NCBI GenBank assembly: GCA_964291395.2
Contig: OZ219856.1
Span: 672,001-736,000 of the forward strand
Reading direction: 5' to 3'
DNA: 64,000 bases
Source of the DNA: Alphaproteobacteria bacterium
Lineage (GTDB): Bacteria; Pseudomonadota; Alphaproteobacteria; UBA2966
In this document: positions 35,085 through 62,526 of the stretch, piece by piece
Numbering within the stretch: position 1 is the stretch's first letter
Layout of the letters: the number at the start of each line of letters is the position of its first letter
Position numbers and translations under genes: made by a program
The notes under the pieces: model-generated
Told to the model about the DNA's origin: nothing
Seen by the model: only the letters and a program-made list of their open reading frames with translations
Database searches by the model: none

Positions 35085-35180
35085 GACTCGGTGGCCGGCT
35101 GCGGAACGGAAACGCGTGTACACAGACATTGATAGTGACCAGTCATATGATATGACCATTAAAGAGGAAGGAATGGGGAG

Positions 35181-35405
35181 ATGAAGACGATCGGTGCAGC
35201 GAAGTTCAAGGAACGGTGCCTGGCGTTGCTCGATCACCTTGATCACGACGGGCTGGTCATCACCAAGCGCGGCAAGCCCGTCGCGCGCCTGCTTCCATTC
35301 GAGCAGCACCACGCCGAACTGATCGGCAGTCTGCGTCACAAGGTCGAAGTTCGGGGCGACATTCTCGCCACCGGAATCGAATGGAACGCCGATGCTCAAT
35401 CTTGA
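35181..35405 (+). CDS. Phd/YefM family antitoxin
   Basis: MKTIGAAKFKERCLALLD, VITKRGKPVARLLP. Confidence 0.92.
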   Translation: MKTIGAAKFKERCLALLDHLDHDGLVITKRGKPVARLLPFEQHHAELIGSLRHKVEVRGDILATGIEWNADAQS

Positions 35406-35787
35406 CACCCACGTACTCGTCTTCGCGGTCAGCGGCGCGCTTCGCCCGGCGGAACGCGCGCTGTTGGCGCGCGACAGGTGGTCGGTTTCGGCCATCGTGC
35501 TGTAGGAGCTCGCCAAGTTCATCCGGCTTGGCCGGGTGGGCATGGACCTCGATGATCGCGACGTCGCCGGCATGCTCGACCGCGTGCATGTCTGGCCCAT
35601 TGACCTCGACGTCGCGCGAGCCTCCACCCGCCTCGACTTCAAGGGCGACCCGGCGGACGAGATCATCGCGGCTACCAGCGTCGTGCACGTCGTCCCTCTG
35701 GTCACCCGCGACCGCGTCATCAGGCAGTCGAAGATCGTCCCCCTAGCCACGGCGGATGGAGAAGACGAGGCACGGCGGGAATTCTGA
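35392..35787 (+). pseudogene. VapC/PIN toxin with nonsense codon
   Basis: MLNLDTHVL...SAIVL*ELAK (TAG 35503-35505 where Trp is usual), DPADEIIAAT, LVTRD. Confidence 0.88.
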
Positions 35788-35924: not shown

Positions 35925-36854
35925 TCAGCCGCCGGCCGCCTTCGCGGCCACGATGGCGGCGATGAAGGCGGCGGCCAGACGCGCTTCGGGCGGGTCGGCC
36001 CGCGACGTCAGCACGATCGGCACCCTGGTGCCCATGACCACGCCGGCCGCCGTGGCGCTCATGAAGTAGACCATCTGCTTGAACAGGATGTTGCCGGCCT
36101 CGACGTTGGGCACGACGAGGATATCGGCGTTGCCCGCGACCGGGCTCTCGATGCTCTTCAACCGGGCGGCCTCGGGCGAGACCGCGTTGTCGAAGCCGAA
36201 GGGGCCGTCGACTGCCGCGCCCGTCACCTCGCCGCCGGCCGCGCGCGCGGCGACCTCGGCGGCCTGGACGCTCGACGGCATGCCGGGGTTGACGACCTCG
36301 GCGCCCGAGAGGAGGGCCACGCGGGGCTCCCGGGGGTCGAGGGCCCGGGCCAGCTCGACGGCGTTGTTGACGATGTCGAGCATCTCGTCCGCGTCGGGCC
36401 GGACGTTGACCACCGCATCGGTGACGTGGAGGACGCCGCTGCGGCCCGGAGCCGTCATGTGGAAGACGTGGCTCACGCGCCGGCCGGTGCGCAGGCCCGC
36501 ATCCCGGCGCAGGACCGCGCGCATCAGGGCGTCGGTGTGCACGTGGCCCTTCATGATCGCCGCCGCCTCGCCGCTCCCGGCGAGTGCCGCCGCGGCCTCC
36601 GCCTTCTTCGCCTCGTCCGCCTCCTCGACGATGCGGACCCCGCCGAGGTCCCAGCCCGCGTCCCCCGCGAGGGACCGGATGGCGTCCGCCTCGCCGATCA
36701 GGACGGGTTCGATGGCGCCCGCCTCGGCGGCCCGCCGCGCGCTCGTCAGGGCCACGGGGTGGTCGGCGCCCGCCACGGCCATCGGGACGCGGGGCAGCCC
36801 GCCCGCGAGTTCCATCAGGTATGCGGGGACCTCGAAGGGCTCGGTGCTCAGCAT
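35925..36854 (-). CDS. pta: Phosphate acetyl/butyryltransferase
   Basis: IMKGHVHTD, DGPFGFDNAVS, PNVEAGNILFK, TSRAD; directly downstream of xsc. Confidence 0.88.
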   Translation of the reverse strand: MLSTEPFEVPAYLMELAGGLPRVPMAVAGADHPVALTSARRAAEAGAIEPVLIGEADAIRSLAGDAGWDLGGVRIVEEADEAKKAEAAAALAGSGEAAAIMKGHVHTDALMRAVLRRDAGLRTGRRVSHVFHMTAPGRSGVLHVTDAVVNVRPDADEMLDIVNNAVELARALDPREPRVALLSGAEVVNPGMPSSVQAAEVAARAAGGEVTGAAVDGPFGFDNAVSPEAARLKSIESPVAGNADILVVPNVEAGNILFKQMVYFMSATAAGVVMGTRVPIVLTSRADPPEARLAAAFIAAIVAAKAAGG

Positions 36855-36949: not shown

Positions 36950-38731
36950 CTACGCGCCGACCTGGGGCCGCATGTCGGCCGGGTCGATGCCGGCGACCGC
37001 GACCGGCGCCTTCATCGCGTCGCGGCGGAACGGCTCGCCCAGCTCCTGGTTCAGCACGACCTCGACGAAGGTGGTCTCGTTCCTCTCCATCTGCCCTTCG
37101 ATGGCGTCGGACAGCGCCTCCGTCAGGCCGCCCGTCGTCGTCACCTGAACGCCCTTCAGGCCGCAGGCTTCGGCGATCCCGGCGAACCGCACGTCGAGGT
37201 CGAGCTCGGTGCCGACGAAATTGTCGTCGAACCACAGCGTGGTGTTCCGCTTCTCGGCGCCCCACTGGTAGTTCCGGAAGACGACCATCGTGATCGGCGG
37301 CCACTCGCCCCGCCCGCAGGACGACATCTCGTTCATGGAGATGCCGAAGGCGCCGTCGCCGGCGAAGCCGACCACCGGCACGTCGGGCTTGGCGATCTTC
37401 GCCCCGAGGATCGCCGGGAAGCCGTAGCCGCAGGGGCCGAACAGGCCCGGCGCCAGGTATTTGCGGCCCTTCTCGAAGGTCGGATAGGCGTTGCCGATGG
37501 CGCAGTTGTTGCCGATGTCGGACGAGATGATCGCCTCCCCCGGCAGGGCCGCCTGGATGGCCCGCCATGCCATGCGCGGGCTCATGCGGTCGGGCTGGGC
37601 CGTGCGGGCGCGCTCGTTCCAGGTCGTTCCGGGGTCGTCCTCCTCGTGGTCCATCGAGGAGAGAAGCTGGAGCCAGGCCGACTTCGTCTGCGCGACGAGG
37701 GCCTCGCGTTCCTTGCGCCCCTTGTCGCCGGCCGTGCCGGAGAGCCCGGCGAGGAGCTGCTTCGCGACGGCCTTGGCGTCGCCCTGGATGGCCACGGTTA
37801 CCGGCTTGGTCAGGCCGATCCGGTCGGAATTGATGTCGACCTGGATGAGCTTCGCGTCCCCGGGCCAGTAGTCGATCCCGTAGCCGGGCAGGGTGGAGAA
37901 CGGGTTGAGGCGCGTGCCGAGCGCCAGGACGACGTCGGCCTTCGAAATGAGCTCCATCGCGGCCTTCGAGCCGTTGTAGCCGAGAGGGCCGACCGACAGG
38001 GGGTGGCTGCCCGGGAAGGCGTCGTTGTGCTGGTAGTTGCAGCACACGGGGGCCGACAGCTTCTCCGCGAGCTTTGCCGACGCTTGAATGCCGCCGGACA
38101 GCACGACGCCGGCGCCGTTCAGCATCACGGGGAACTCCGCCTTGGAAAGGAGGTCGGCCGCTTCCTCGATGGCGGCCGTGCCGCCGCGCGGGCGCTCGAG
38201 GCGCACGATCTGCGGCAGGTCGATGTCGATGACCTGCGTCCAGTAGTCGCGCGGCACGTTGATCTGGGCCGGCGCCGACAGCCGGAAGGCGTTCTCGATG
38301 ACGCGGTTCAGCACCTCGGCCATGCGCGAGGGATCGCGGACCTCCTCCTGATAGCAGACCATGTCCTCGAACAGCTTCATCTGCTCGATCTCCTGGAAGC
38401 CGCCCTGGCCGATGGTCTTGTTGGCGGCCTGCGGCGTCACCAGCAGCAGCGGCGTGTGGTTCCAGTACGCGGTCTTCACCGGCGTCACGAAATTGGTGAT
38501 GCCCGGACCGTTCTGCGCGACCATCATGCACATCTTGCCCGAGGCGCGGGTATAGCCGTCGGCCATCATTCCGGCGTTGCATTCGTGCGCGCAGTCCCAG
38601 AACGTGATCCCCGCCGTGGGAAAGAGGTCGGAGATGGGCATCATCGCCGAACCGATGATCCCGAAGGCATGCTCGATACCGTGCATCTGGAGAACCTTCA
38701 CGAAGGCTTCTTCCGTGGTCATTTTCGTCAT
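36950..38731 (-). CDS. xsc: Sulfoacetaldehyde acetyltransferase (ThDP)
   Basis: KMTTEEAFVKVLQMHG, GIIGSAMM, GDGAFGIS, NYQWGAEKRN, ELGEPFRRDAM. Confidence 0.96.
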   Translation of the reverse strand: MTKMTTEEAFVKVLQMHGIEHAFGIIGSAMMPISDLFPTAGITFWDCAHECNAGMMADGYTRASGKMCMMVAQNGPGITNFVTPVKTAYWNHTPLLLVTPQAANKTIGQGGFQEIEQMKLFEDMVCYQEEVRDPSRMAEVLNRVIENAFRLSAPAQINVPRDYWTQVIDIDLPQIVRLERPRGGTAAIEEAADLLSKAEFPVMLNGAGVVLSGGIQASAKLAEKLSAPVCCNYQHNDAFPGSHPLSVGPLGYNGSKAAMELISKADVVLALGTRLNPFSTLPGYGIDYWPGDAKLIQVDINSDRIGLTKPVTVAIQGDAKAVAKQLLAGLSGTAGDKGRKEREALVAQTKSAWLQLLSSMDHEEDDPGTTWNERARTAQPDRMSPRMAWRAIQAALPGEAIISSDIGNNCAIGNAYPTFEKGRKYLAPGLFGPCGYGFPAILGAKIAKPDVPVVGFAGDGAFGISMNEMSSCGRGEWPPITMVVFRNYQWGAEKRNTTLWFDDNFVGTELDLDVRFAGIAEACGLKGVQVTTTGGLTEALSDAIEGQMERNETTFVEVVLNQELGEPFRRDAMKAPVAVAGIDPADMRPQVGA

Positions 38732-38844
38732 GTCTGGAAATCCTCCTTGGCCGCGGCCGCCAGCAGCTTCGACGGTCGTCTTGCCTCGCCGCTTGCGGCG
38801 GATTATTAAGCCATTGCCCCGGCACGGGCAAGTTGGCAGGGTCG

Positions 38845-39513
38845 TCACCGGCCGCCCGGAATCACCCCTTCCATGGGCTTCCAGTCCGGCTGGTTCTCGG
38901 GCATCGAGTCGGCGAAGGCGGGCAGTTCGTTGCAGCGCGCGACGATGTCCAGGATTGTCGGATACGGCGACAGGTCGCAGTCGAACCGTCGGGCGTTGTA
39001 GGTCTGCGGAACCAGGCAGAGGTCGGCCAGCGTGGGCGCGTCGCCGCGGCAGAACACGCCCGGCGACTCCCGCGCCGCGAGCATGCCCTCGAGGCCGCTC
39101 AGGCCGGCGGCGATCCAGTTCCCGTACCAGCCGTCGATGTCCTCCGCCGACGCGCCGATCCGGTCGGCCAGATAGCGCCGCACCCGCCGGCCCATCAGGG
39201 GGTGCATGTCGCTCGCGATGGATTGGGCGAAGCTTCTGACCCAGGCCCGTCCGGCCGAATCGGCCGGGAGCAGGGGCGGCTCGGGATAGACCTCTTCCAG
39301 GTACTCGAGGATGGGCAGGGATTGCGCGACCACGATCCCGCCGTCCTCGAGGATCGGCAGCATCCGCTGGGGATTGAGCGCCTCGAACCAGTCCGCTCGG
39401 TGCTCGTCCTCGACCAGGTTGACGATCACCTGCTCCGCCTCGATTCCCTTTAGTTTCAGCGCGATCCGTACCCGATAGGCCGCGTTCGACATGTAAAAAT
39501 CATAAAACTTCAC
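38845..39513 (-). CDS. maiA: Zeta-class GST (maleylacetoacetate/maleylpyruvate isomerase-like)
   Basis: SNAAYRVRIALKLKG, LNPQRMLP, QSLPILEYLEE, PENQPD. Confidence 0.85.
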   Translation of the reverse strand: MKFYDFYMSNAAYRVRIALKLKGIEAEQVIVNLVEDEHRADWFEALNPQRMLPILEDGGIVVAQSLPILEYLEEVYPEPPLLPADSAGRAWVRSFAQSIASDMHPLMGRRVRRYLADRIGASAEDIDGWYGNWIAAGLSGLEGMLAARESPGVFCRGDAPTLADLCLVPQTYNARRFDCDLSPYPTILDIVARCNELPAFADSMPENQPDWKPMEGVIPGGR

Positions 39514-39619
39514 GGTTCCGCTCCCGGTCGGTATGCTTGGCGCCCATTCACGCGAATCGAGCCCGTCATCATAGTTGCCGGGCGGCGCGGAATCCCCCTG
39601 GAAATCGAAGGGTGCGTTC

Positions 39620-40684
39620 ATGGAATTCGGAATTTTCAACCTGCTCAGCCGCCGGCTGGAGTCGCAGACGATCAACCAGATCGTCGAGGAGGCCGCGGAG
39701 ACGGTCAAGCTGGCGGATCAGGCTGGCTTCACCACGGCCTGGTTCCCGGAGCACCACTACTCGAACTACTCGATCGCGCCGTCACCGCTGATGATGTGCG
39801 CCTTTTGCGCCCCCACCACCCGCCGGATCAAGCTCGGCACGGCCATCGTCATCGGCACGCTCTATCAGCCGGCGCGGCTGCTGTCGGAGGTGGCCTTCGT
39901 CGACGGCATGACCGACGGCCGGCTCGTGCTCGGTTTCGGCAGCGGCTATCAGCCTCACGAGTTCAAGCGTTTCGGCATCGATCTGCAGCACTCGCCGGAC
40001 ATCACGGAAGAGGTGCTGGACATCGTGGAGGGCGGACTCACCAACGACTCCTTCGAGTACCACGGCAAGCATTTCGATTTTCCGCATACCTACATGGCCC
40101 TGCGGCCCGTACAGCCCATGCCGGAAGTCTGGATCGCCGGCAACAACGCCCAGATGCAGCGCCGGGCGGCCCGAAGCGGCTATCCGCTGATCGTCTCGGC
40201 GCTGGTGAAGGACATCGATTTCGTGGCGGGCCTGCGCGAAACGGCGGAGCGGAACTGGAACGACGCGGGCGTCGACCCGGCGAACATGCGGCTCGCCACC
40301 CTTCGCTTCGCCTATGTCACCGACGACCACGGGGACGCCCTGGAATTCGGCGACAGCGCACGGTTCCAGTACCGGCTGGCCCGCAACCTGCGCTTCCGCA
40401 AGGAAGAGCTCGAGGAGGGTCTGTTGCCTGAGGTTCCCTTTGAGGACGAACCGACACTGGAGGAGCTCGTCGCGAACAATCCCATCGGCGATCCGGAAAC
40501 GGTCGCGGAGCGTATCGTCGAGGAAGTGCGCAGGGTCGGCTCGTTCCACATGAGCTTGTACATGCACGTCGGCTCGATGCCGCTCGAGAAGTCGATGCGG
40601 TCGATCGAGCGCTTCGCCGCCGAGGTCATGCCCCTCGTGGAGAAGGAGCTGGACGAACCGGTGACCGCCGCCGCCGCCGAGTAG
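39620..40684 (+). CDS. Luciferase-like (LLM) flavin-dependent oxidoreductase
   Basis: [39 protein letters not shown]. Confidence 0.93.
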
Positions 40685-40728
40685 CGCGAATCAACGGTTT
40701 TCCTTCTCCCGAAGAGGGGAGACGGCAC

Positions 40729-41196
40729 GTGACCGAAACGCTCGATCCCAGCAAGCGGCAGAACATCACCCTGGTGACCGGCGTCATCGGTTCCGATACG
40801 CACATCGTCGGCAACCGCATCCTGTCGATGGCACTGGAAGAGGCGGGGTATTCCATCGTCATCCTCGGCGCCCTGACGCCGGCGGACGAATTCATCAAGG
40901 CCGCCATCGAGACGGCAGCCGACGGCATCATGGTTTCGTCGCTCTATGGCCAGGGCGAGCTCGACTGCCGCGGCTTCAGGGAACTTTGCGTCGAAGCGGG
41001 GCTCGACGACATCCTGCTCTACGTGGGGGGCAACCTCGTCGTGGGCAAGACTCCGTGGGAAGTGGTCGAGAAACGCTTTCTGGACATGGGGTTCGACCGC
41101 GCTTTTCCGCCGGGTACGCGCACCCCGGAGGTCGTCGAGGCCCTGGACAGGGATTTCGCCGCGCGCGCCCGGGGCAAGCGGACCGCCGACTCGTGA
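40729..41196 (+). CDS. mamA: Glutamate-mutase-like cobalamin-binding S subunit (GlmS/MamA type)
   Basis: [12 protein letters not shown] (DxHxxG), [16 protein letters not shown]. Confidence 0.9.
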
Positions 41197-42632
41197 GCGG
41201 AGACGCCGCGGCCGCGCTGCTCATCGACTTCGGCAGCACCTACACCAAACTTCGCGCGATCGACCTGGAGCGAGCCGAGATCATCGGTTCGGGCCAGGGA
41301 CCGTCGACGGTCACGACCGACATCACGGTCGGCATGGAGGCGGCGCTCGCGGACCTGGAAGGCCGCATCGGCGGCCTTCCCGATTTCACGTACCGGCTGG
41401 CGACGTCCAGCGCCGCGGGCGGCCTGCGCATGGTCACCGTGGGGCTGGTCAAGGAGCTGACGGCGGAAGCGGCGCGGGTTGCCGCGCTGGGCGCCGGCGC
41501 CAGGCTGATCGGCACGTACGCCTATCGGTTGACCGCCGGCGACATCGCCGGGATCGAGGGTCACAGTCCCGATATCATCCTGCTCGCCGGCGGCACCGAC
41601 GGCGGCAATGACGAAGTGATTCGGCACAATGCCCGGGTCCTCGCGGAGTGCGGCATCACCTGTCCCGTGGTCGTCGCAGGAAACCGGGAGGCGACGGACG
41701 ACATCTCCGCACGGCTGGACTCGGCGGGAAAGACGGCGGTTCCCACCGAGAACGTCATGCCGGAATTCAACGTGCTCAATATCGAGCCGGCGCGCGCCGC
41801 GATCCGCCGGATCTTCATAGATCGGATCGTCCACGCCAAGGGGATCGATCGGGCGGCGGAGATGTTCGACGAGATCCTCATGCCGACGCCGGAGGCGGTC
41901 ATGGAAGGCGCGCGTCTGCTCGCCGACGGCACCGGCGGGCAGAACGGTCTGGGGCCGCTGCTCGTGGTGGACATCGGGGGCGCGACGACGGACGTGCATT
42001 CGGTGGCGGCCGGGGAGCCGACCCTCGAGGGCGCGATTCAGCGAGGGCTGCCCGAGCCTTACGTCAAGCGCACCGTCGAGGGCGATCTCGGGATGCGCCA
42101 CAACGCTCTCTCCATCGTCGAGGCGGCGGGTCTGGACACCCTGGCCTCGGAAGCCAGGCTGACCGGGGATCGCTTCCGGGAAAATCTGGCAATGATTTCC
42201 GGCGACGTGGAACGGCTGCCGGAGACGGACGAGGAACGGGCGGTCGACCGGGCACTCGCGCGTGCCGCGACCCTCATCGCCGTGCGTCGCCACTCGGGCA
42301 GGACCGAGACCGTCTATACGGCCATGGGGCCGGCGGTCGCTCAACACGGAAAGGATTTGTCCGGCGTGGGGGCCGTCATCGGTACCGGCGGCGCGCTCGT
42401 ACACGGAAACGACCCCGCGGGAATCCTGGCCAAAGCGTGCGCCGATCCGAACGACCCGGAGTCGCTCCGTCCGCGTGCGCCCCGCCTGTATCTGGATCGG
42501 GAATATCTGTTATACGCCTGCGGCTTGCTCGGAACCGTGGAGCCGAAAGCCGCCTTGACCTTGGGCCTCGCCCATATGCATCCTGTCGCCGAGGAGGAAC
42601 ACGGGAATGGCCGAAGTTCTGCCGCCGGATAG
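41193..42632 (+). CDS. glmL: GlmL/MutL-type mutase accessory ATPase (actin fold)
   Basis: [50 protein letters not shown]. Confidence 0.92.
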
Positions 42633-44115
42633 CGTTGCGTCGCCACTGTCCGAAATCCGGATTCCGGATGACGAATTCGCCAGGATGCGCAAGGAGAACC
42701 TGGCGCGCTGGCCGACGGGCGCGGGCGTCGATTTCGATGCCGCGGTCGACTACCACAAGAACCTGCCCATGCATAAACGGCTCGCCTGGGTGATGCGGCG
42801 GGCGGACGCGGAGGGCCGCACGCTTACCCAGCCGCGCGGCGGCTTCGGCACGCTGGAGATGCAGAGGGAACTGATGACCACCCTCGACCGGGAGGGCTTG
42901 GCCGACATCGTTCCGACCACGACGGACAGCTACACGCGAAACGAGCGCTGGGAACAGGCCCAGCACGGCATCGAGGAGTCGAAGCGCCTGGGGCGCTCGA
43001 TGCTGAACGGGTTCCCCATGGTGAACTACGGGGTCGAGGACACCCGGAAGCTGATCGAGGCGATCGACAAGCCCGCCGTCATGTTGACCGGCACCGCGAT
43101 GCCCAAACTGACCGGCGAAGTCGGCTACGCGGCCGGGTATTCGGGATATCTGGGATCAGCCATCGCCTACACGCTCTCCTACACCAAGGAGATCCCGATC
43201 GAGATCGGCATCCGCAACTACCAGTACCTCGACCGGCTGGCGTCGATGTACCTGGAGCACGGGGTCGAACTGCACCGCCGCCAACCGGGATTTCTCACCG
43301 GGACCAACATCCCGCCCTGTATCGCCATCGTCACGGCCGTGTTGGACGTGCTGCTGGCCGCGGCTCAGGGCGTTCGCAATTACGGCCTCGAGCTCGGTCA
43401 GACGTTGCACCTGATCCAGGACGCCGCCGCCATCCGGGTCTGCCGCGAGATGTGCCAGGAGTATCTGACCAGGAAGGGATACGAGGACGCGTTCACGCCG
43501 GTGACGTCGTTGCACTGGATGGGGGCCTGGCCGCACGACGACGCCCAGTCGGCGGCGATCGTCGCATATGGCGGCACGCTCGCGGCGGTGGGCGGCGCCA
43601 TCAGCGTCACCACGAAGAGTCTCCACGAGGCCTTCGGCATCCCGACACCGGAAGCAAACGCCGAAGGCCTGCGCGTCACCCGTATGGCCATCTACATGGC
43701 CCGCAGCATCAAGCTCGACGGTCTGCCCGAATACGAACGGGAGAAGGAAGTCATCCGCAAGGAGGTCCGCGCCGTCGTCGACAAGGTGTTGGAGATGGGT
43801 GACGGAGACGCGGCCGTCGGTACCGTACGAGCCTGCGAAGCCGGCGTGCTCGATATCCCGTGGTCCCCGAGCCGTTCGGTCAAGGGCCGCATCCTTCCGG
43901 CCCGCGATGCCGATGGATACCTGCGCATCTTGAACCCGGGTGACATGCCGTTTCCGAAGGAAGTCCTCGACTATCACGAGGAGCGCTTGCGCAAGCGCGC
44001 CGAGAAGGACGGCATGCCCTACGACCATGAGCTCGCAGTCTCGAGCGTCTACGAGATCTCCGAGCCGCTCCAGGCGCTGGCGCCGTTCCCCTATGTCCAG
44101 GAAGCGGCGGAATAG
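42607..44115 (+). CDS. Glutamate-mutase-like E subunit with altered substrate pocket
   Basis: WPTG, QPRGG, DSYTR, NGFPMVNYG, QYLDRL, HWMG, KSLHEAFGIPT, RDADG align with GlmE; see findings. Confidence 0.9.
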   Translation: MAEVLPPDSVASPLSEIRIPDDEFARMRKENLARWPTGAGVDFDAAVDYHKNLPMHKRLAWVMRRADAEGRTLTQPRGGFGTLEMQRELMTTLDREGLADIVPTTTDSYTRNERWEQAQHGIEESKRLGRSMLNGFPMVNYGVEDTRKLIEAIDKPAVMLTGTAMPKLTGEVGYAAGYSGYLGSAIAYTLSYTKEIPIEIGIRNYQYLDRLASMYLEHGVELHRRQPGFLTGTNIPPCIAIVTAVLDVLLAAAQGVRNYGLELGQTLHLIQDAAAIRVCREMCQEYLTRKGYEDAFTPVTSLHWMGAWPHDDAQSAAIVAYGGTLAAVGGAISVTTKSLHEAFGIPTPEANAEGLRVTRMAIYMARSIKLDGLPEYEREKEVIRKEVRAVVDKVLEMGDGDAAVGTVRACEAGVLDIPWSPSRSVKGRILPARDADGYLRILNPGDMPFPKEVLDYHEERLRKRAEKDGMPYDHELAVSSVYEISEPLQALAPFPYVQEAAE

Positions 44116-44142
44116 TCCGGGGCCTTTTCACGGGAGAATGGG

Positions 44143-44538
44143 ATGAAACGCATGCACGTCGGCCTCGTCGTCGAGGACGTGGCCGCCTCGGTGACGTTCT
44201 ACACGCGTCTCTTCGGCCAGCCGCCGAGCCTGGAAAAACCCGACTACGCCAAGTGGATGCTCGACGACCCGCGGGTCAACTTCTCGATCAACTCGCGCGG
44301 CAGTACGCCGGGCGACGTGCATCTCGGCATCCAGGCCGAGGACGAAGCCGAACTGGGCGAACTGCGCGAGCGCTGGACGGCGACCGGCTCGGAGACCCTG
44401 GACAGGAAGGCGCTCACGTGCGGCTATCAGACCCAGAACAAGACCTGGGTACGCGACCCCGAAGGCATGCGCTGGGAAGCCTTTCACACCTATGCGGTCA
44501 CCGACACGTTCGGCAAGAGCGAGTCGGAAGAGCGGTAA
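44143..44538 (+). CDS. ArsI/CadI-like VOC protein
   Basis: MKRMHV, DYAKWMLDDPRVNFSI, HLGIQ, WVRDPEGMRWEAF; TCGY rather than the usual CCY. Confidence 0.88.
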   Translation: MKRMHVGLVVEDVAASVTFYTRLFGQPPSLEKPDYAKWMLDDPRVNFSINSRGSTPGDVHLGIQAEDEAELGELRERWTATGSETLDRKALTCGYQTQNKTWVRDPEGMRWEAFHTYAVTDTFGKSESEER

Positions 44539-44567
44539 CGGTTCCGCGCTGCAACTCGGCGCCCATG

Positions 44568-44777
44568 CGGAAGGGGAGTTGACCGGCCATGGCCGACAAG
44601 AAAACCGCGCTGGTTCTGGGTGGAACCGGCATGGTCGGACGGAACCTCGTCATGCTGCTCGACACCCTGGACGACTGGGAGGCGATCGCCGTTTCGCGCC
44701 GGGAACCCTATTTCGAAACCAAGGCGCGTCACATCTCCTGCGACATGACGGAGCCCGACGACTGCAGGGCCAAGCTG
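44568..44777 (+). repeat. 210-bp direct repeat, copy 1 (RBS plus 5' end of SDR gene)
   Basis: Identical by eye to 46217-46426; offset 1649 bp. Confidence 0.95.
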
Positions 44778-44795
44778 GGTGGGCAGCGCGCTTGA
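44589..44795 (+). pseudogene. Truncated duplicate of the 46238 SDR gene
   Basis: First 63 codons identical to 46238 gene, then diverges and stops. Confidence 0.9.
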
Positions 44796-45136
44796 GGTAT
44801 TCACCTACGCCGTGTTCGGCCCACATTTGGTCCTTTACGCGGTGTTCGGCGTTGCTTGCTGCTCAGCCCGATCGTGTTCTGGAGAAACGCCCCTCCTATC
44901 GACCGTATTTGGTCCGGTCCCGGCTTCTGCCTGATCGTGTCACACATGGCCTTGAAGGCTTTACAACGACCTTAAATCAGGCAATTCCGATTATTATTGC
45001 CATAATCTCAACCGCTTGATCGGGCTTCAAATTTCATAAAGTATCGTCAAGTTGTTTCATGCAATTCCATCACGGATTGTGGTGGTGTCGCGCTCCCTTC
45101 GTGGGCGAAACCCGGGAAGGGGGGAAGGGGTGCGAG

Positions 45137-45451
45137 ATGGCCAAGCATATCCGGTGCTACGCCGAGGGCAGAGGTGATGAATGGACCGCGATCTGTCTGA
45201 ACTTCGATATCGCGGTGCAAGGACATTCGTTCGAGGACGTGAAGGAATGCCTTGAGGGCGCAATCGATCTGTTCCTCGAAGGCGTAGCGGAGCTTCCCGC
45301 TAAAGACCGGAACCGTCTCCTGCGTAGATCGGCACCTGTGTCCATGCTGAAGTATTTGCGAGCCGTGGTCTGGTCGTGGATCTTCGGCGACTCGGAGGAT
45401 GGGGAGCAACACCAGCATCACTACACGATGCCGTTTGCCGGCACAGCCTGA
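45137..45451 (+). CDS. HicB-like antitoxin
   Basis: WTAICLNFDIAVQGHSFEDVKECLEGAIDLFLE. Confidence 0.8.
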   Translation: MAKHIRCYAEGRGDEWTAICLNFDIAVQGHSFEDVKECLEGAIDLFLEGVAELPAKDRNRLLRRSAPVSMLKYLRAVVWSWIFGDSEDGEQHQHHYTMPFAGTA

Positions 45452-45457
45452 CCGGCT

Positions 45458-45668
45458 TTAGTCGAAATAAGACTTCGGGAGACCCCTGGCGGATGATCGA
45501 GGGAGTGGCGGGGTGTATATCGTCGCTTTCGCGCGAACAAGCGATAGTCACGAGCCGGACCTTACCGTTGACCACACCACGATAGTTTCTATGGCTTCCC
45601 TTCTGGCGTTTCAACTCGAAACCGTTCCGAAGCAGGACGCGAACGATGTCTCGGAATTTCTTCGTCAT
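45458..45668 (-). pseudogene. HicA-family toxin, frameshifted near C-terminus
   Basis: MTKKFRDIVRVLLRNGFELKRQKGSHRNY; native end GLPKSYFD* is in another frame. Confidence 0.8.
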
Positions 45669-45770
45669 CTGAATGTGGTCGGCGTGCTCACGGAGTCACC
45701 TTGCTCGCACCGAACATGACGCGCACCGCGATTCTGCGCGTCTCTGGCTTTCATCAATCAAATGTAGACA

Positions 45771-45783
45771 AATCAATATGTTG
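45771..45783 (+). promoter_or_regulatory. IHF binding site
   Basis: AATCAATATGTTG exact match to WATCAANNNNTTR in AT-rich islet. Confidence 0.5.
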
Positions 45784-46216
45784 TCATAATCATCCACAGG
45801 TCGGTTCGATTTGTAACTGGATCTTCCCACAAGATTTTGTGTCGACACGACACTTATTTTCCATATTTTGAGGGTGCGCCACTGCTTTGTGCGACTGTGA
45901 GAACGTAGGACGAACACGCCGCCGTACATACGCTGCGTCGATCGACTCGTCCGTCACGTCGTCGAGAACGGCCGTCATCGGTCTCGCCCCGGTCGATGGA
46001 TGCCAGCGGTCCATTTACGCGGGTGTACCAGCGGGTCGAAACGCGAGCTCGGCTTCGGGCGCATCCCGACGGTCGGGGTCACGGCGCGACAAGAGCGCGC
46101 GCGGATGCGATTCGGGACCCTCCCGCCCTGTCGGGCGGAGGAACGCAAGTCGGGAGGATGTCGATAGAAAGCGGAATCGGCGTGCCTGTGATATAAGCCG
46201 GCCGTGTCGTACCGTT

Positions 46217-46426
46217 CGGAAGGGGAGTTGACCGGCCATGGCCGACAAGAAAACCGCGCTGGTTCTGGGTGGAACCGGCATGGTCGGACGGAACCTCGTC
46301 ATGCTGCTCGACACCCTGGACGACTGGGAGGCGATCGCCGTTTCGCGCCGGGAACCCTATTTCGAAACCAAGGCGCGTCACATCTCCTGCGACATGACGG
46401 AGCCCGACGACTGCAGGGCCAAGCTG
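46217..46426 (+). repeat. 210-bp direct repeat, copy 2
   Basis: Identical by eye to 44568-44777. Confidence 0.95.
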
Positions 46427-47290
46427 TCGGGCATCGGCGACGTTACCCATGTCTTCTTCTGCGGGCACGCCACCGGTATCCGGTGGGCGGAGAAAGCGCC
46501 CGAGGATACCGACCTCTTCCGCAATTCGATGGATGCCGCGCTGCCCAACCTCCCCAATTTGCGGCACGTCTGCCTGATGCAGGGATCGAAGTACTACGGG
46601 CGGCATCTCGGGCCGTTCAAGACGCCGGCGCGGGAAGAAGACCCGCGTCACATGCCGCCCAATTTCTACTACACGCAGCAGGACCGCCTGATGGAGCTCT
46701 CGGAGGGGCAGTCATGGGGCTGGTCGTGCGCGCGACCTCACATCGTCACCGGATACGCGCGCACGGACCTCAATCTGACGAAGCCGATCGCGGTCTACGC
46801 GACGGTCTCCAGGGAGCTCGGCCTGCCGCTTCGCTATCCCGGCAACGAAGCCGCTTACCGGGCCCTTCACTGCGCCTCGGACGTCGAGCTTCTGGCCCGC
46901 GCGATGGTGTGGATGTCGACCACGCCGGAATGCGCCGGAGAAGCCTTCAACGTGGTCAACGGCGACTATTTCCGCTGGGAGAACGTGTGGCCGAAGATCG
47001 CCGACTATTTCGGGATGGAGTGCGGCCCCGTCCAGGAGATCGATCTCGAACAGATGATGTCGGACAAGGAACCGCTGTGGAACGAGATCGTCAAGAAGCA
47101 CGGCTTGGTGGAGACGCCATGGGCGGAAGCGGCCCATTGGGGGTATGCCGACTACGCCTTCGCGCCCTCCTGGGACGTGATGCTCGATTCCCTGAAACTC
47201 CGGAAGTTCGGGTTCCACGACTACGTGGACAGCGAGGAGATGTTCATCCGCATCTTCGACAACTTCCGGCGCGACAGGTTCATTCCGTAA
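46238..47290 (+). CDS. PRISE-like (progesterone 5-beta-reductase/iridoid synthase type) SDR
   Basis: GGTGMVG, SRR, GSKYYG, PPNFYY, GEAFN. Confidence 0.85.
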   Translation: MADKKTALVLGGTGMVGRNLVMLLDTLDDWEAIAVSRREPYFETKARHISCDMTEPDDCRAKLSGIGDVTHVFFCGHATGIRWAEKAPEDTDLFRNSMDAALPNLPNLRHVCLMQGSKYYGRHLGPFKTPAREEDPRHMPPNFYYTQQDRLMELSEGQSWGWSCARPHIVTGYARTDLNLTKPIAVYATVSRELGLPLRYPGNEAAYRALHCASDVELLARAMVWMSTTPECAGEAFNVVNGDYFRWENVWPKIADYFGMECGPVQEIDLEQMMSDKEPLWNEIVKKHGLVETPWAEAAHWGYADYAFAPSWDVMLDSLKLRKFGFHDYVDSEEMFIRIFDNFRRDRFIP

Positions 47291-47307
47291 ACGGCGCGGG
47301 GCCGGCC

Positions 47308-47847
47308 GTGGCGCGAGAGTCCGACAACGGGGGCGAGGGGCAGGCGCTCAGCTATACCGACGTTCTCGATATTCTCGAGATCGTCGACGGCGTCGGCGAG
47401 GGCTGCGAGCTGACCGTCGACGTGGGCGACTTTCATCTGCATTTCGTGAAGGATGCCGCAGGCGGGGCGTCGGCAAGTCCGGAACCGGCGCCCGGGCCCG
47501 AACCTGCGGTTCCCGGACCGCGGGCCGCCGAAACGGAGGAACCGGCACCCACGGAGGCGTCCGAAACGGAGGCCTTTTCGGCCGACGAGCCGGCGGACCC
47601 CAATCTGTTCGAAGTCGAGTCGCCGATGGTCGGGACATTCTATCGTCGTCCGGCTCCGGACCGGCCGCCGTTCGTCGAAATCGGCCAGGACGTGGGACCC
47701 GACGACGCGGTCTGCCTCGTCGAGGTGATGAAACTGTTCAATACCATCGTGGCCGGCCAGGCCGGACGCATCGCCGAAATCTGCGTCGAGGATGCCACGC
47801 CCGTCGCGGTGGGACAGGTCCTCGTCCGCATCGATCCCGCGGACTGA
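47308..47847 (+). CDS. Biotin carboxyl carrier protein
   Basis: Pro/Ala/Glu linker, SPMVGTFYRRP, EVMKLF biotinyl-Lys. Confidence 0.92.
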   Translation: MARESDNGGEGQALSYTDVLDILEIVDGVGEGCELTVDVGDFHLHFVKDAAGGASASPEPAPGPEPAVPGPRAAETEEPAPTEASETEAFSADEPADPNLFEVESPMVGTFYRRPAPDRPPFVEIGQDVGPDDAVCLVEVMKLFNTIVAGQAGRIAEICVEDATPVAVGQVLVRIDPAD

Positions 47848-47869
47848 CCCGGCCGTACCGTATCCTCCC

Positions 47870-49339
47870 GTGAGCCGCGAGATCCCCATCGTCGAAGAAG
47901 CCCTGCGGGATGCCCACCAGTGCCTGTGGTCGACCCGCATGACCAACGAGATGATGCTGCCCATCGTCGAGCGCATGGACGCGGTGGGCTACGACGCGAT
48001 GGACCTGATCGGCGGTGCGGTCTGGGATGTTTCGATCCGCTTTCTGCTGGAGGACCCGTGGGAGCGGATCCGGCACGTTCGCAGGCTCGTGACCAGAACA
48101 CCCCTGAATGCCTGGGTCCGCGGTCAGAGTCTGTGGACCTTCGAGGTCTTTCCGGACGAGGTGGTCGAGCTCGCCATGGAGCGACTGGCGGCGAACGGCA
48201 TTCGGCGGGCCACGATCTACGACCACATCAACGACATGGAGGGTCTCCACGTCGTCGTCGGCAAAGCGGTCGAAGTCGGGCTCGAGGTGTCGGGCGCCCT
48301 GGTCTTCACCTTGAGCCCGGTCCATACGGACGGGCATTTCGCCGAGCGCGCGGCCCAATTCGTCCGGATGGGTGCGACCGAGGTCGTCGTCAAGGACCCG
48401 AGCGGTCTTCTGTCGGTCGAGCGCATCCGAACCCTGGCACCGGCCCTCAAGAAGGCCATCGGTGACGCTGCGCTCAACCTGCACACCCACTGCATGACCG
48501 GCCGCGCCCCCGATGTCCTGCTCGAGTCCGTCGACTACGGGATGGACAAGCTGCACTGCGCGATCTCGCCGCTGGCGCACGGCGCGTCTCATTCGCCCAC
48601 GGAATGGATCGCCGAGAAGCTGGTCGGGAAGGGGTACTCGACACGGCTGGACGCGGAACTTCTCGGCGAGATCGCGGACTATTTCCATTTCGTCGCGCGC
48701 CGCTGGGACAAGCCGGTCGGCGAGCCCGTGCCGTTCGACCCGCGCGTGCTGGAGCACCAGATGCCCGGCGGCATGATCTCCAACCTCGCGAGTCAGCTCG
48801 CGACGGTCGGACTGGAACGCCGCCTGGACGAAGTCCTCGACGAGATGGGCCGGGTGCGCAAGGAACTCGGTTACCTGCCGATCGTCAGCCCTTCGGCCCA
48901 GTTCATCGCCACCCAGTCGGTCCTCAACCTGGTGCAGGGGGAGCGCTACAAGACCATTCCCGACGAGCTGCGGAAGTACATTCTCGGCTACTACGGCCGT
49001 CCGCCGGCGCCGGTCGACCAGAACCTCGTCGACCGCGTGGCCAGGAAGAGCTCCGACGTCGTCACCGGGCCCAGCGGCTCTCACGTTCCCCCGGTGCTCG
49101 ACAAGATCCGCAAGGAGCGGGGTCCCTTCGAGTCGGACGATGACCTGCTGCTCGCCGCGATGTATCCGGACGAGATCATCCGCCCTCTGTTCGAAGCGCG
49201 CGACAAGGCCGACTATTCCGCGTTCTACCGCGCCGACACGCCGGCCGACTACCTCCTGAAGGAGGTCAGGGCCCGTCCAGGGCTGCGGAGCTTCGAGCTC
49301 TCCACGGGGGCCGGTTTCGACGTCGTCTATAGTCACTGA
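47870..49339 (+). CDS. Pyruvate carboxyltransferase-type subunit (PycB/OadA-like, no biotinyl domain)
   Basis: LRDAHQCLWSTRM, EDPWERI, VKDPSG, LHTHC, HQMPGGMISN. Confidence 0.9.
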   Translation: MSREIPIVEEALRDAHQCLWSTRMTNEMMLPIVERMDAVGYDAMDLIGGAVWDVSIRFLLEDPWERIRHVRRLVTRTPLNAWVRGQSLWTFEVFPDEVVELAMERLAANGIRRATIYDHINDMEGLHVVVGKAVEVGLEVSGALVFTLSPVHTDGHFAERAAQFVRMGATEVVVKDPSGLLSVERIRTLAPALKKAIGDAALNLHTHCMTGRAPDVLLESVDYGMDKLHCAISPLAHGASHSPTEWIAEKLVGKGYSTRLDAELLGEIADYFHFVARRWDKPVGEPVPFDPRVLEHQMPGGMISNLASQLATVGLERRLDEVLDEMGRVRKELGYLPIVSPSAQFIATQSVLNLVQGERYKTIPDELRKYILGYYGRPPAPVDQNLVDRVARKSSDVVTGPSGSHVPPVLDKIRKERGPFESDDDLLLAAMYPDEIIRPLFEARDKADYSAFYRADTPADYLLKEVRARPGLRSFELSTGAGFDVVYSH

Positions 49340-49374
49340 CGATCCGGCGCCACTGACAGGAAAGGAGCTTCGTC

Positions 49375-50175
49375 ATGAACCGTGTCGACGGAAAAGTCGC
49401 CATCGTCACGGGGGCCGGCAAGGGCATCGGCCGTGCGACGGCGGAACTGTTGGCCGAATGCGGTGCCAAGGTCCTGGCGACCGACGTCCTCGATGCCGAA
49501 GTCGAGGAAACGGTCGAGCGGATCAGGGCGCGGGGCGGGGAGGCCCGGGGCCTTCGTCACGACGTCACGAACGAGGACGATTGGACCGCAGCCGTCGATG
49601 CGGCCGTGAACGGTCTCGGCGGCTTCGAGGTGCTGGTCAACAACGCCGGCGCGTTTCTCCAAAAATCCATCGAGGAGACTACCTTCGAGGAGTACGACCA
49701 CATCATGCGGGTCAACGTCTGGGGGTTGATGCTCGGCACCAGGTTCGCCATGAGCTCGATGAAGGAGCGCATTTCGGCGGACGGTCCGGCGGGCGCGATC
49801 GTCAACCTGGTATCGACGGCCTCGATCAAGGGCTCACCCTTCGGCTCCGCCTACGCGACGTCGAAGGGGGCCGTCCGGGTGTTCACGAGGTGCGCGGCCC
49901 GGGAGATCGCGGCGCTCGGCTACAACATCCGCGTCAACGGCATCTACCCCGGGATCATCGATACGGAGATGGGCGCCGCCGCCATGAAGCGGGCCGCCGA
50001 CGCCGCCGGCGAAGGCGCGAACCGGGCGCGCGAGATCGGGGCGAAACTTCACCTCATCGAGCGCTTGGGCACGGTGGAAGACATCGCCAAGGGCATCGTC
50101 TTCCTCGCGTCCGAGGACGCCTCCTTCATCACCGGGACCGAATTCGTCGTCGATGGGGGCTTCTTGCTCAAGTGA
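49375..50175 (+). CDS. Short-chain dehydrogenase/reductase
   Basis: TGAGKGIG, NNAG, YATSK, DGGF. Confidence 0.95.
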   Translation: MNRVDGKVAIVTGAGKGIGRATAELLAECGAKVLATDVLDAEVEETVERIRARGGEARGLRHDVTNEDDWTAAVDAAVNGLGGFEVLVNNAGAFLQKSIEETTFEEYDHIMRVNVWGLMLGTRFAMSSMKERISADGPAGAIVNLVSTASIKGSPFGSAYATSKGAVRVFTRCAAREIAALGYNIRVNGIYPGIIDTEMGAAAMKRAADAAGEGANRAREIGAKLHLIERLGTVEDIAKGIVFLASEDASFITGTEFVVDGGFLLK

Positions 50176-50637: not shown

Positions 50638-50883
50638 ACACGAACTTGCTTCGGGGCCATGAGTTCATAGGCGGCACAGGTCAGTCGGGTCGAGAGATGG
50701 ACAACCCTGCGGAGGGTCCGCAGGCGTGCATGGAAGGGGGAAAGGCAGCGGAGAAAGCACCGGAACCGAAGATTGTCGACCGATATCTCGAGTTGCCATG
50801 CGGGAGCTTCGGTCTACGGCAGGACCGCGCAGATTACGATTTTGCTTTTATAACGTGACGAATAATGCGACTTTGTCAGTGTC

Positions 50884-51706
50884 ATGTATGCATCTGCCGC
50901 ACCGCGCGCGCGCAACGTCATCGCCGATCTGGTCGCCGGAGCGGCCGGCATCACTTCACCTCGTCCGAGCTTCGCTCGGCCCTTGGGGTCTCCGAGGCGG
51001 CTGTGCGCCAGGCGCTGAGCCGCCTTGCGGCCAAGGGGGAGATCGCTAGCCCCGCGCGGGGGTTCTACGTCATCGTGCCGCCCGAGTACAGGCGGCTCGG
51101 CTGCCTGCCGGCGGATCAGTTCATACCGTTGCTGATGGAGCACTGGGGCGCTCGCTACTACGTGGGCCTCCTCTCGGCAGCGCAATTTCACGGCGCGGCC
51201 CATCATCGCCCGCAGGAATTCCAGGTGGTGGTGGAGAAGAACCGGCCGGCGATAATTTGCGGGGCCGTCCACGTCGCCTTCGTCGCGCGCCGGAACCTCG
51301 ATGCGGTGCCGGTCGAGACGTTCAACAATCCGCGCGGAACCGTTCTTGTCTCGACCGTGGAAGCGACGGCGGTCGACCTCGTCGGATACTTGCGTCGCTC
51401 CGGAGGCGTGGACCGGGTGGCGGGCATACTTTCCGAGCTCAGCGAGGACATGGACCCGGAGCGTCTCGTCGAGGCTTCGAATTCAGCGTCGATCCTCTGG
51501 GCGCAGCGTCTGGGCTACCGGGATCTGGAGCATGTTGGGGCCGGAGACAGAGCGGTGCTGCTCAAGGAGCATGTGCGGCGGCGCGCGCTACAAACTACAC
51601 GAAGCTGGCGGCTGCCCGGCGCGGGACACCGCGGATGCGCCGTTCGGTCGACAGGACTGCTCAGGCGGGGTTCGTGAACGCAAGCATCGACTGCGCGGAT
51701 GCGTGA
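50884..51706 (+). pseudogene. Type IV TA antitoxin AbiEi family, frameshifted
   Basis: HFTSSE, PARGFYVIVPPEY, YYVGLLSAAQFHGAAHHRPQ, STVEATAVDLV; ATG and C-terminus out of frame. Confidence 0.82.
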
Positions 51707-51780: not shown

Positions 51781-52039
51781 AACACATCGTCGTCAGAGTC
51801 CAACGCGGCTCCAGCGGCCCTTCAACGCCGCCGGTTTCTCGCCGGGCCAGGGGCGGATATCTCCATCCGTGAGCACCTTTAAACGCTGGACCACTGAGCA
51901 CGTCCCATCCTACCGGAGCGTAAGGGGCGCGCGGCCTTGACTCGCGCCGGGTGCCTCAACACACTGCGCCGGCCCTCCCGGAGCGGCTCTTTCACCCCCG
52001 GTCCAAGCCCCGAGACCCCGGCAACGCGGAGATCGAACC

Positions 52040-52444
52040 ATGGCCGACGGCAACGCCATTCAGCCGCCATTGAAGGCGTACGAGGACGCTCTCGGCAGGG
52101 GCGAGATCATCTATCAGGCGTGTGGCGACTGCGGGCACGTGGCGTTCTATCCGCGCCTCATCTGCCCGGAATGCGGATCCGCGAACGTCGAGTATCGGCC
52201 GAGCGCGGGAAAGGGGGAAGTGTACACGCGTACCGTCGTCCATTCGCGCGGCCGGGATCCCTACAACGTCGTGCTCATCGACATGGACGAGGGATTTCGC
52301 ATCATGAGCACGGTGGAGGACGCGCCCAACGACGACGTGCAGATCGGCATGCGCGTCGAACTGAAGACCGTCTACCCGGTCGAGGACGCCAACGCCAAGG
52401 CGGGCCGGCTGCCCAAGCACGTCTTCAAGCCCGAGGGCAGTTGA
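52040..52444 (+). CDS. DUF35 Zn-ribbon/OB-fold protein
   Basis: CGDCG, CPECG, IDMDEGFRIM. Confidence 0.92.
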   Translation: MADGNAIQPPLKAYEDALGRGEIIYQACGDCGHVAFYPRLICPECGSANVEYRPSAGKGEVYTRTVVHSRGRDPYNVVLIDMDEGFRIMSTVEDAPNDDVQIGMRVELKTVYPVEDANAKAGRLPKHVFKPEGS

Positions 52445-53598: not shown

Positions 53599-53610
53599 CG
53601 CGATGTCCGG

Positions 53611-61462: not shown

Positions 61463-61525
61463 TGGCGAGCCTCCGGATGGCAAGGAACGGCGGCGGATGG
61501 AATTTAGCGGCTCGCCGCCGCTTCG

Positions 61526-62362: not shown

Positions 62363-62526
62363 GCCAGTGCGGGTCGGGGTTGGGGCAAAGCGATCCTCAT
62401 ACTGTAGCACACCGCCGGCTTCCGTCTCTTCCCGCTGGTCGCGGGTCTCCGGCGACGGTGTATCGGTTCGTGGTTTGTCCCTATGATGGACGGACGACGA
62501 AAAGAGCGCGGAGTGGGAAGGACGCC

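Follow-up and report, generated by a model that had tools for sequence, protein, structure and literature searches.

The mutase locus and its source

We analysed a 64,000-nucleotide stretch of an alphaproteobacterial genome of the UBA2966 lineage (assembly GCA_964291395.2, contig OZ219856.1, positions 672,001 to 736,000; hereafter the window, with positions counted from its first letter), in which a run of nine genes includes glmS, glmL and glmE, the three genes of a B12-dependent mutase resembling glutamate mutase. The catalytic subunit, GlmE, very probably belongs to a clade that does not act on glutamate, and the run itself may well be a juxtaposition of separate units. The genome is 4.16 Mb long and 98.1% complete, and window DNA was detected in many sequencing runs labelled sponge metagenome. 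Domains and families were assigned with Pfam and NCBIfam models, for which bit scores are given against the model cut-offs.

The original prediction described nine intact, co-oriented genes with short gaps once a 1649-bp islet is removed, and this description holds: by open reading frames (ORFs), Pfam and NCBIfam all nine are intact and on the forward strand, and they overlap or are separated by 17-50 bp. The run opens with a luciferase-like flavin-dependent oxidoreductase or monooxygenase (LLM; 39620-40684; PF00296, E 3e-58), to which no subfamily could be assigned, the best NCBIfam model reaching 113 bits against a cut-off of 462. The mutase genes follow. The GlmS-like B12-binding subunit (40729-41196; PF02310; NF002612, 189.9 bits, cut-off 110) has an N-terminus, SDTHIVG, that fits the B12-binding motif DxHxxG. 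The GlmL/MutL-type accessory, or reactivating, protein (41193-42632; PF13941, E 6e-163; NF040745, 587.5 bits, cut-off 475) has a GTG start overlapping the glmS stop (GTGA), and the GlmE-like catalytic subunit lies at 42607-44115 (PF06368, E 4e-141; TIGR01503, 463.5 bits, cut-off 390.1). A small VOC-superfamily protein (44143-44538; PF00903) is ArsI/CadI-like; it scores 108.1 bits with the ArsI/CadI model NF041414, under the cut-off of 116, and matches the PDB 5c4p group with E 7e-18. ESM Atlas look-ups for the LLM and VOC proteins returned generic family names only.

Beyond the islet, a PRISE-family enone reductase (progesterone 5-beta-reductase/iridoid-synthase-like; 46238-47290; PF22917, 98.3 bits, cut-off 27) gives a full-length Rossmann-type domain match, its residues 6-350 aligning to residues 3-364 of PDB 2v6f_A with E 1.8e-63. 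An AccB-type biotin carboxyl carrier protein (BCCP) with the biotinyl motif EVMKL is missing from the 80-aa ORF list, yet is real at 47308-47847; it passes NF005457 (94.6 bits, cut-off 87) and stays under the cut-off of TIGR00531 (109.8 bits, cut-off 115.2). The run ends with a PycB/OadA/5S-type carboxyltransferase (CT; 47870-49339; PF02436 and PF00682; NF006761, 442.9 bits, cut-off 402) and a classical SDR oxidoreductase (49375-50175; PF13561, PF00106).

As had also been predicted, a zeta-class glutathione S-transferase (GST) is transcribed divergently from the LLM gene. It is of the maleylacetoacetate/maleylpyruvate isomerase type (maiA; 38845-39513, reverse strand; TIGR01262, 244.6 bits, cut-off 171), and its start is probably at V66 of a longer ORF. 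A point absent from the earlier account is that this gene heads an operon of its own, maiA-xsc-pta. The second gene encodes sulfoacetaldehyde acetyltransferase, a thiamine pyrophosphate enzyme (xsc; 36950-38848, reverse strand; NF005713, 1023.6 bits, cut-off 620; TIGR03457, 926.2 bits, cut-off 676.4), whose GTG start overlaps the maiA stop by 4 bp. The last is a pta-like phosphate acyltransferase (35925-36854, reverse strand; PF01515, E 4e-42; NF006045, 347 bits, cut-off 282). With this PTA_PTB-family gene directly downstream of the xsc equivalog, the Xsc-Pta end-pathway pair is complete.

A rebuilt substrate pocket in GlmE

Conserved residues are numbered here as in the GlmE chain of C. cochlearium; the corresponding window residue is the chain number plus 11. 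The window GlmE aligns with this chain (PDB 1cb7_B) without gaps (phmmer, 401 bits). In glutamate mutase the substrate is gripped by an arginine claw formed by R66, R149 and R100; R66, R149 and E171 bind the migrating glycyl moiety, with E171 contacting its amine, while R100 and Y177 bind the acrylate half (as described in PMC10947579). The window protein retains R66, R100, Y177, Y181, K326 and E330, and three residues of the glycyl side are changed: R149 to leucine (L160), H150 to threonine (T161) and E171 to leucine (L182). The arginine claw is thus incomplete and the amine-contacting glutamate is gone. K326 and E330, which we take to be the adenosyl-handling residues of glutamate mutase, are invariant in a MAFFT alignment with five canonical-type representatives, in which the canonical sequences read RH..E where the clade reads LT/LS..L.

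To place these changes we fetched 80 loci encoding GlmE relatives, 5 from within the genus and 75 from outside it, called their genes as ORFs filtered by codon-position G+C and then clustered, and mapped all ten window proteins onto each. Leucine stands at both 149 and 171 in all 77 loci that cover these positions (the other three of the 80 have no coverage), and position 150 among the 77 is threonine in 48, serine in 28 and partial in one. Between 66 clade sequences and 32 canonical representatives, 12 positions are fixed differently, among them E214R, which adds a positive charge, and F216P; residue 171 is glutamate in all 32 representatives with the canonical pattern.

The clade also stands apart in sequence. 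When GlmE was searched against 1.84 billion representatives clustered at 50% identity, the best full-length match was 65% identical to the window protein and the next only 41%, the closest canonical-type representative (P0006) being 40% identical. We aligned 118 full-length GlmE-family representatives; 32 of them have the canonical contact pattern RRRHEYYKE, and most others have different patterns. From the alignment, GlmE of this clade is very probably not a glutamate mutase. Our literature search, which left most subscription journals outside its coverage, found no paper on this GlmE variant.

A separate observation concerns the family as a whole. Dozens of other contact patterns occur among its representatives while K326 and E330 stay near-invariant (P0003-P0152; the alignment of the most distant is less certain), which suggests that the GlmE family holds many uncharacterised B12 mutase specificities.

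Neighbours of the variant mutase

The flanking DNA fetched varies from locus to locus: 37 of the outside loci span at least 15 kb, and 52 have enough flank upstream of glmS. At 30 of these 52, the immediate upstream same-strand neighbour of glmS is a gene of the MLE subgroup of the enolase superfamily (for instance L029:1293-2450), in 28 cases within 112 bp, and such a gene occurs anywhere in the locus at 46 of the 75. Its best NCBIfam and PDB matches, all below cut-off, are o-succinylbenzoate synthase, dipeptide epimerases and muconate cycloisomerases. It occupies the spot expected for methylaspartase, which is also an enolase-superfamily enzyme. The window genome has two MLE-type genes of its own, which we considered as the partner and set aside: they are 39-40% identical to it, against 45-93% within the partner family, and lie in a TauD/SDR/amidase context.

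Other neighbours recur outside the genus as well. TctCBA transporters are frequent (TctC in 24 of the 37 large loci), an MDR-type quinone-reductase-like gene is found in 12 of the 37, and class I fumarase-like and succinate dehydrogenase/fumarate reductase-like (SDH/FRD-like) genes in some loci. A recurrent neighbour resembling aldehyde dehydrogenase is SauS, the acylating sulfoacetaldehyde dehydrogenase (NF047625, 787.5 bits, cut-off 600). Of the 75 outside loci, 16 carry SauS, 4 Xsc and 5 TauE; at least one of the three occurs in 21 of the 75, and in 16 of the 37 loci of at least 15 kb. Within the genus, xsc-pta lies directly beside glmSLE in five of six genomes, and in the window maiA-xsc-pta and the mutase run stand back-to-back. 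The placement in the genus counts as another, independent form of adjacency, found where the MLE-type partner is lacking. The literature search, also where it was aimed at mutases with a non-amino substrate or beside sulfonate genes, found no paper that connects a mutase of the glutamate or methylaspartate type with SauS or Xsc.

These neighbours could also be read in a way that leaves sulfur out. The variant mutase might act on a sulfur-free C5 dicarboxylate without an amino group (2-methyleneglutarate, glutarate, or 2-hydroxy- or 2-oxoglutarate) and yield a 3-methyl-branched C4 diacid, the nearness of xsc-pta and SauS being incidental. The pocket, in which R100, Y177 and R66 are kept while R149 and the amine binder E171 become leucine, would suit a non-polar or absent C2 substituent, and the TctCBA, MLE-type, MDR-type, fumarase-like and SDH/FRD-like neighbours all fit dicarboxylate chemistry. 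Glutamate mutase itself slowly converts 2-hydroxyglutarate to 3-methylmalate. However, SauS, Xsc and TauE are typically specialised, single-copy genes, and their occurrence near 21 of 75 loci from several phyla, together with the five of six genus genomes, is unlikely to be chance. We therefore consider the sulfur-free alternative unlikely, though likelier than the other alternatives.

One pathway or separate modules

The original prediction took the nine genes for one catabolic route of a chemistry it did not recognise, and had made conservation of the neighbours with this GlmE clade one point on which that view turned. The genes are present and their chemistry is still not one that we recognise, but the single route is not supported, as the neighbours are not conserved with the clade. 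Only five loci carry a GlmE at least 90% identical to that of the window; all belong to sister species, and only they carry the window-type non-mutase genes. PRISE and VOC genes occur in none of the 75 GlmE-related loci outside the genus, and a single one of these (L049) has CT and BCCP homologues, which are distant (35-49% identity) and not adjacent. Seen from the other side, PRISE homologues are present in 46 of 301 alphaproteobacterial genomes, the window's own included, and are at most 50% identical outside that genome; neither a BCCP nor a CT gene lies within 1.5 kb of PRISE at any of the 29 other alphaproteobacterial PRISE loci. With a best match of 50% identity outside the window's genome, this survey of the class yielded no orthologous context for PRISE.

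The full gene set is confined to the sponge-associated alphaproteobacterial genus, which we compared as six genomes, that of the window and those of five sister species. We interpret the mutase genes as horizontally acquired by this genus, because an order-wide search finds GlmE in six of six genus genomes and in none of 17 others of the order. Even among the genus loci only glmS-glmL-glmE is constant. One species (G319, locus L003) has, at its glmSLE locus, no more of LLM than 68 residues and none of the genes between VOC and SDR, these two included, and another locus (L002) has no LLM gene. Whole-genome searches found no LLM orthologue in G319 or G318, where the best matches (45-46% identical) correspond to a paralogue that is also present in the window's genome, and no VOC orthologue in G319. 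What G319 does keep is the second half of the run at another place: PRISE (89% identical), CT (87%), SDR (83%) and the thiolase-like genes (85% and 90%), with a BCCP remnant, lie at 426-433 kb of its single 3.55-Mb contig, and glmE lies at 2.76 Mb. Counted in either direction around the chromosome, more than 1.2 Mb separates the two halves. A tautomerase-family gene, a GMC oxidoreductase and an aldehyde dehydrogenase precede the PRISE module there.

The run is loose at other points too. The biotinyl domain of BCCP is lost in four of the six genomes (L002, L004, L005 and L118), where the N-terminal 40-58 residues remain. The stubs can be seen between PRISE and CT, at L002:14171-14290, L004:13272-13436, L005:13340-13477 and L118:10058-10231. 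The VOC-PRISE junction is interrupted in three genomes, by the hicA islet in the window, by four opposite-strand genes in L001 (amidohydrolase_2, a small ORF, a cupin and an MFS transporter) and by an opposite-strand HAD hydrolase in L002; only L004 and L005 have it unbroken. All genes are nonetheless under purifying selection, with ratios of non-synonymous to synonymous substitution (dN/dS) of 0.04-0.35, GlmE being the tightest (0.04-0.13). On this evidence the genus cluster reads as working genes being shuffled rather than as a decaying island.

Signals of transcription add little. An RNA library (X19) holds contigs at least 99% identical over maiA, LLM, glmS/L/E and the PRISE-BCCP junction, which is a weak hint of expression given that such libraries may contain DNA. 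No contig of this library spans LLM to SDR and none covers the islet, and the uncovered part proves nothing. A scan of 38.5-51 kb gave three promoter-like sites (shuffled sequences, 2.0 +/- 1.4) and one terminator-like site (shuffled sequences, 7.4); all but one of these lie inside the islet, and the scan is uninformative on operon boundaries.

Could all nine genes nevertheless form one route, in which the mutase product passes to the enone reductase, the biotin-dependent CT and the SDR? The gaps are short or overlapping, the genes are contiguous without an insert in L004 and L005 and adjacent in five of six genus genomes, and the CT retains the metal and carbamyl-lysine motifs of pyruvate and oxaloacetate carboxyltransferases, for which a 3-methyl-substituted oxaloacetate would make good chemical sense as a substrate. 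One possible version runs from 2-oxoglutarate to 3-methyloxaloacetate and on to 2-oxobutyrate and CO2. We had considered such a decarboxylation of mutase-made 3-methyloxaloacetate by CT and BCCP and set it aside as chemically neat and without support from conservation. The separation of the halves in G319, the loss of the biotinyl domain in four genomes, of LLM in two and of VOC in one, the broken junction in three, and the lack of PRISE, VOC or adjacent CT/BCCP genes at the outside loci, as of CT/BCCP beside other PRISE genes, all speak against it. A nine-gene route seems quite improbable.

The islet at the VOC-PRISE junction

The 1649-bp islet that had been predicted at 44.6-46.2 kb is there, delimited by a 215-bp direct repeat with a spacing of 1649 bp. 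The left copy (44563-44777) holds a shortened PRISE 5' ORF (44589-44795) and the right copy (46212-46426) the start of the intact PRISE gene; the two are 99% identical and duplicate the ribosome-binding region and about the first 63 codons of PRISE. The 1434 bp between them (44778-46211) are lower in G+C (0.53-0.56, against 0.60-0.70) and encode a 122-aa ORF with a HicA toxin domain on the reverse strand (45300-45668; HicA_toxin, E 3.4e-8) and, on the opposite strand, a HicB-looking ORF without a Pfam match (45059-45451, forward). This is an insertion carrying hicA, and the same junction is interrupted in two sister species as well.

Relative to the window, contigs of two DNA runs (X1 and X2) show four insertions of 2-3 bases in the islet, and given these the long HicA ORF may be artefactual, arising from the assembly or from strain differences. 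In X1 the contig depth over the islet (44748-46244) is 7.8, with 18.5-22.2 in the flanks and 32.4 for the repeat contig. This lower depth may hint that only part of the population carries the islet; no contig joining VOC straight to PRISE across it was found in the sequencing runs. Toxin-antitoxin and abortive-infection genes lie at the module borders more generally: Phd/YefM at 35163-35784, HicA at 45059-45668, an AbiEi-type antitoxin or regulator at 50865-51677 (forward; PF09407, E 9e-41), between the SDR gene and a thiolase-like pair, and, in the sister species, BrnT at L118:4480-4845. Their position fits a recombination-prone region.

The PRISE-BCCP-CT-SDR module

The thiolase-like pair (SCP-x/PRK06158-type; 51898-54762, forward) travels with PRISE-CT-SDR in L004, L005 and L118, and we treat these genes together as unit B. 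Judging by homology, unit B is one of several paralogous modules in the genome, which has 4 PRISE, 8 CT and 6 BCCP-like matches in varied, oxygenase-rich contexts, one CT adjoining a biotin carboxylase. The eight CT paralogues (36-100% identical) amount to a family expansion, and the five sister species have 6-8 each. Most of the eight are accompanied by a separate BCCP but by no biotin carboxylase. Examples lie at C1:426661-428058, 567270-570049, 732011-733459, 827281-828693, 1454567-1455997 and 2261025-2262467, among Rieske, PhyH and TauD oxygenases, RidA, FAA-hydrolase, PEP-mutase/ICL and RraA-like genes. The third of these, C1:732011-733459, corresponds to window positions 59960-61525. It belongs to a region of the window (59960-62551 and 57191-57667, reverse strand) with a second CT, 47% identical to that of the cluster, in the company of a BCCP-like match, an ADP-forming acyl-CoA synthetase (57852-59996) and a dioxygenase of the PhyH type.

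In the cluster CT, the motifs RDAHQ, VKD and LHTH align with PDB 5ks8_C and 1rqb_A. In 5S transcarboxylase and PycB, RDAHQ, KD and HxH supply the ligands of the metal and the lysine that becomes carbamylated, and on these motifs the CT should act on a 2-oxoacid. Near them, KDM is changed to KDP and GGATY/F to GGAVW. No biotin carboxylase, second CT or OadB was found within 38.8-55 kb of the window; elsewhere the genome has five Biotin_carb_C matches and one OAD_beta match. In species whose BCCP has no biotinyl domain the dN/dS of CT is 0.17-0.22, and because it is under purifying selection where that domain is lost, the enzyme may work with a carrier encoded elsewhere or without biotin. As PRISE enzymes reduce enones and a tautomerase-family gene stands just upstream in G319, unit B probably turns a 2-oxo-3-enoate into a 2-oxoacid and then carboxylates or decarboxylates the product.

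The missing methylaspartase

Methylaspartate ammonia-lyase is described as clustering canonically with glutamate mutase (PMC4682846). Its absence from the window had been pointed out from the start, and a genome-wide search for mal was negative as well: the MAAL_C domain (PF07476) has no match in the window's 98.1%-complete genome, with the same search positive in 2 of 14 control genomes, and none above cut-off in all five other genomes carrying the variant. A search for MAAL_N (PF05034) was likewise negative in the window's genome and carries no weight, since none of the control genomes had a match either. The absence is no longer a puzzle, because the mutase, with leucine in place of both R149 and E171, is very probably not a glutamate mutase; a lacking methylaspartase would then be expected.

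That the enzyme is a genuine glutamate mutase, its 3-methylaspartate being used without methylaspartase by transamination or as a biosynthetic building block, agrees with three subunits above their NCBIfam equivalog cut-offs, with the names of the relatives and with the biosynthetic glutamate mutases without methylaspartase in actinomycete macrolactam clusters, but is very improbable given leucine at R149 and E171 in all 77 covered clade members, no NRPS/PKS (non-ribosomal peptide or polyketide synthase) or aminotransferase gene in the cluster, and 32 canonical-pattern representatives that form a separate group at no more than 41% identity.

A proposed mutase module beside a 2-oxoacid module

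We give an even chance to the reading that the window holds an uncharacterised adenosylcobalamin (AdoCbl) mutase, horizontally acquired and possibly devoted to a sulfonated acid, beside an independent 2-oxoacid module; as part of that same reading, and with the same chance, the cluster would be a lineage-specific juxtaposition of independent units and not a nine-step pathway. Unit A would consist of glmS-glmL-glmE with the optional LLM and VOC genes, and would be an AdoCbl carbon-skeleton mutase that the genus acquired by gene transfer. It keeps the B12-binding subunit, the reactivase, the adenosyl-ribose residues K326 and E330 and the acrylate binders R100 and Y177, and its glycyl-group site is rebuilt by the changes R149 to leucine, H150 to threonine, E171 to leucine and E214 to arginine together with eight further clade-specific ones. 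Such an enzyme should perform a glutamate-mutase-like 1,2-shift on an acid with a terminal propionate-type carboxylate and no alpha-amino group. Its place would be in organosulfonate breakdown, with carbon passing to sulfoacetaldehyde and then to acetyl phosphate and sulfite. Unit B would be a separate PRISE-(BCCP)-CT-SDR module with the thiolase-like pair, for 2-oxo-enoate reduction and 2-oxoacid carboxylation or decarboxylation. Within this reading a sulfonate role is the most likely one for the mutase, its chances being again about balanced, because the variant recurs near SauS, Xsc and TauE in unrelated bacteria and lies back-to-back with maiA-xsc-pta here.

More tentatively, and with the chances somewhat against it, the L149/L171 (and R214) variant may represent a new substrate class of AdoCbl mutases, acting on a sulfonated or non-amino short-chain acid and feeding SauS/Xsc/Pta, which would have spread by gene transfer across Proteobacteria, Nitrospira, Acidobacteria and the sponge-symbiont genus while hidden under the annotation methylaspartate mutase.

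Several points weigh against the reading of two independent units with a non-glutamate mutase. All three subunits score above the NCBIfam equivalog cut-offs for methylaspartate mutase, as those of a true glutamate mutase with an unusual pocket might, the database names of the relatives are uniformly 'methylaspartate mutase subunit E', and the pocket argument is built on an alignment to one solved enzyme. The MLE-type partner is missing beside glmS in all six genus genomes, so that the genus may use the mutase differently from the wider clade, without that partner. One genus species (L003) has glmSLE without xsc-pta, and 54 of the 75 outside loci show no sulfonate gene in the DNA fetched; the sulfonate link is an association from which no substrate can be named. 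Finally, the tight spacing of the genes, their contiguity in L004 and L005 and their adjacency in five of six species are what a real operon would show.

The analysis contributes three things: the transfer of the variant to a sponge-associated genus in which the usual partner gene is not beside it, the position of the mutase genes against xsc-pta, and a breakdown of the flanking modules. B12-dependent carbon-skeleton mutases are known for few substrate classes, and a conserved, widespread clade with a rebuilt pocket would, if our reading is true, extend that short list. A systematic misannotation would be put right at the same time, as the equivalog hidden Markov models call the clade methylaspartate mutase. 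Organosulfonate breakdown is a large flux of sulfur and carbon in soils, oceans and sponges; should the sulfonate link hold, the mutase would be an undescribed step in it. The window has a more general lesson as well: tight co-orientation in one genome overstated functional unity, and a comparison of six species split the nine-gene run.

Comparison with known systems

The window PRISE is a full-length match to the family of plant progesterone 5-beta-reductase and iridoid synthase (PDB 2V6F, 5COA), and differs from the plant enzymes in that its genome has four paralogues and that its closest homologue outside the genome is 50% identical. With PycB, transcarboxylase 5S and OadA (PDB 5KS8_C, 1RQB, 2NX9) the CT shares the HMGL-like and PYC_OADA domains (E 2e-87 to 7e-86), and, as in two-subunit PycB systems, a separate AccB-type BCCP lies upstream. 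Unlike those systems, the cluster has no biotin carboxylase or OadB, and the BCCP is shortened in four of six species.

The sulfoacetate/taurine end-pathway (SauS, Xsc, Pta, TauE) is shared through xsc-pta, which here stands back-to-back with the mutase genes, whereas SauS and SauT are not in the window; to our knowledge, no B12 mutase belongs to this pathway as described. 2-Methyleneglutarate mutase, from the nicotinate fermentation of Eubacterium barkeri, likewise uses AdoCbl to rearrange the carbon skeleton, in its case that of a C5 diacid which carries no amino group, the kind of substrate that the rebuilt pocket suggests. The likeness is one of reaction type; none of the other genes of that fermentation was seen in the window or the loci. 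Glutamate mutase (GlmS/GlmE with GlmL/MutL, EC 5.4.99.1; C. cochlearium, PDB 1CCW, 1CB7 and 1I9C) has the same S-L-E architecture, with models above their cut-offs; the window clade departs from it by leucine, threonine or serine, and leucine at 149, 150 and 171, and by an MLE-type partner that, elsewhere in the clade, stands in place of methylaspartase.

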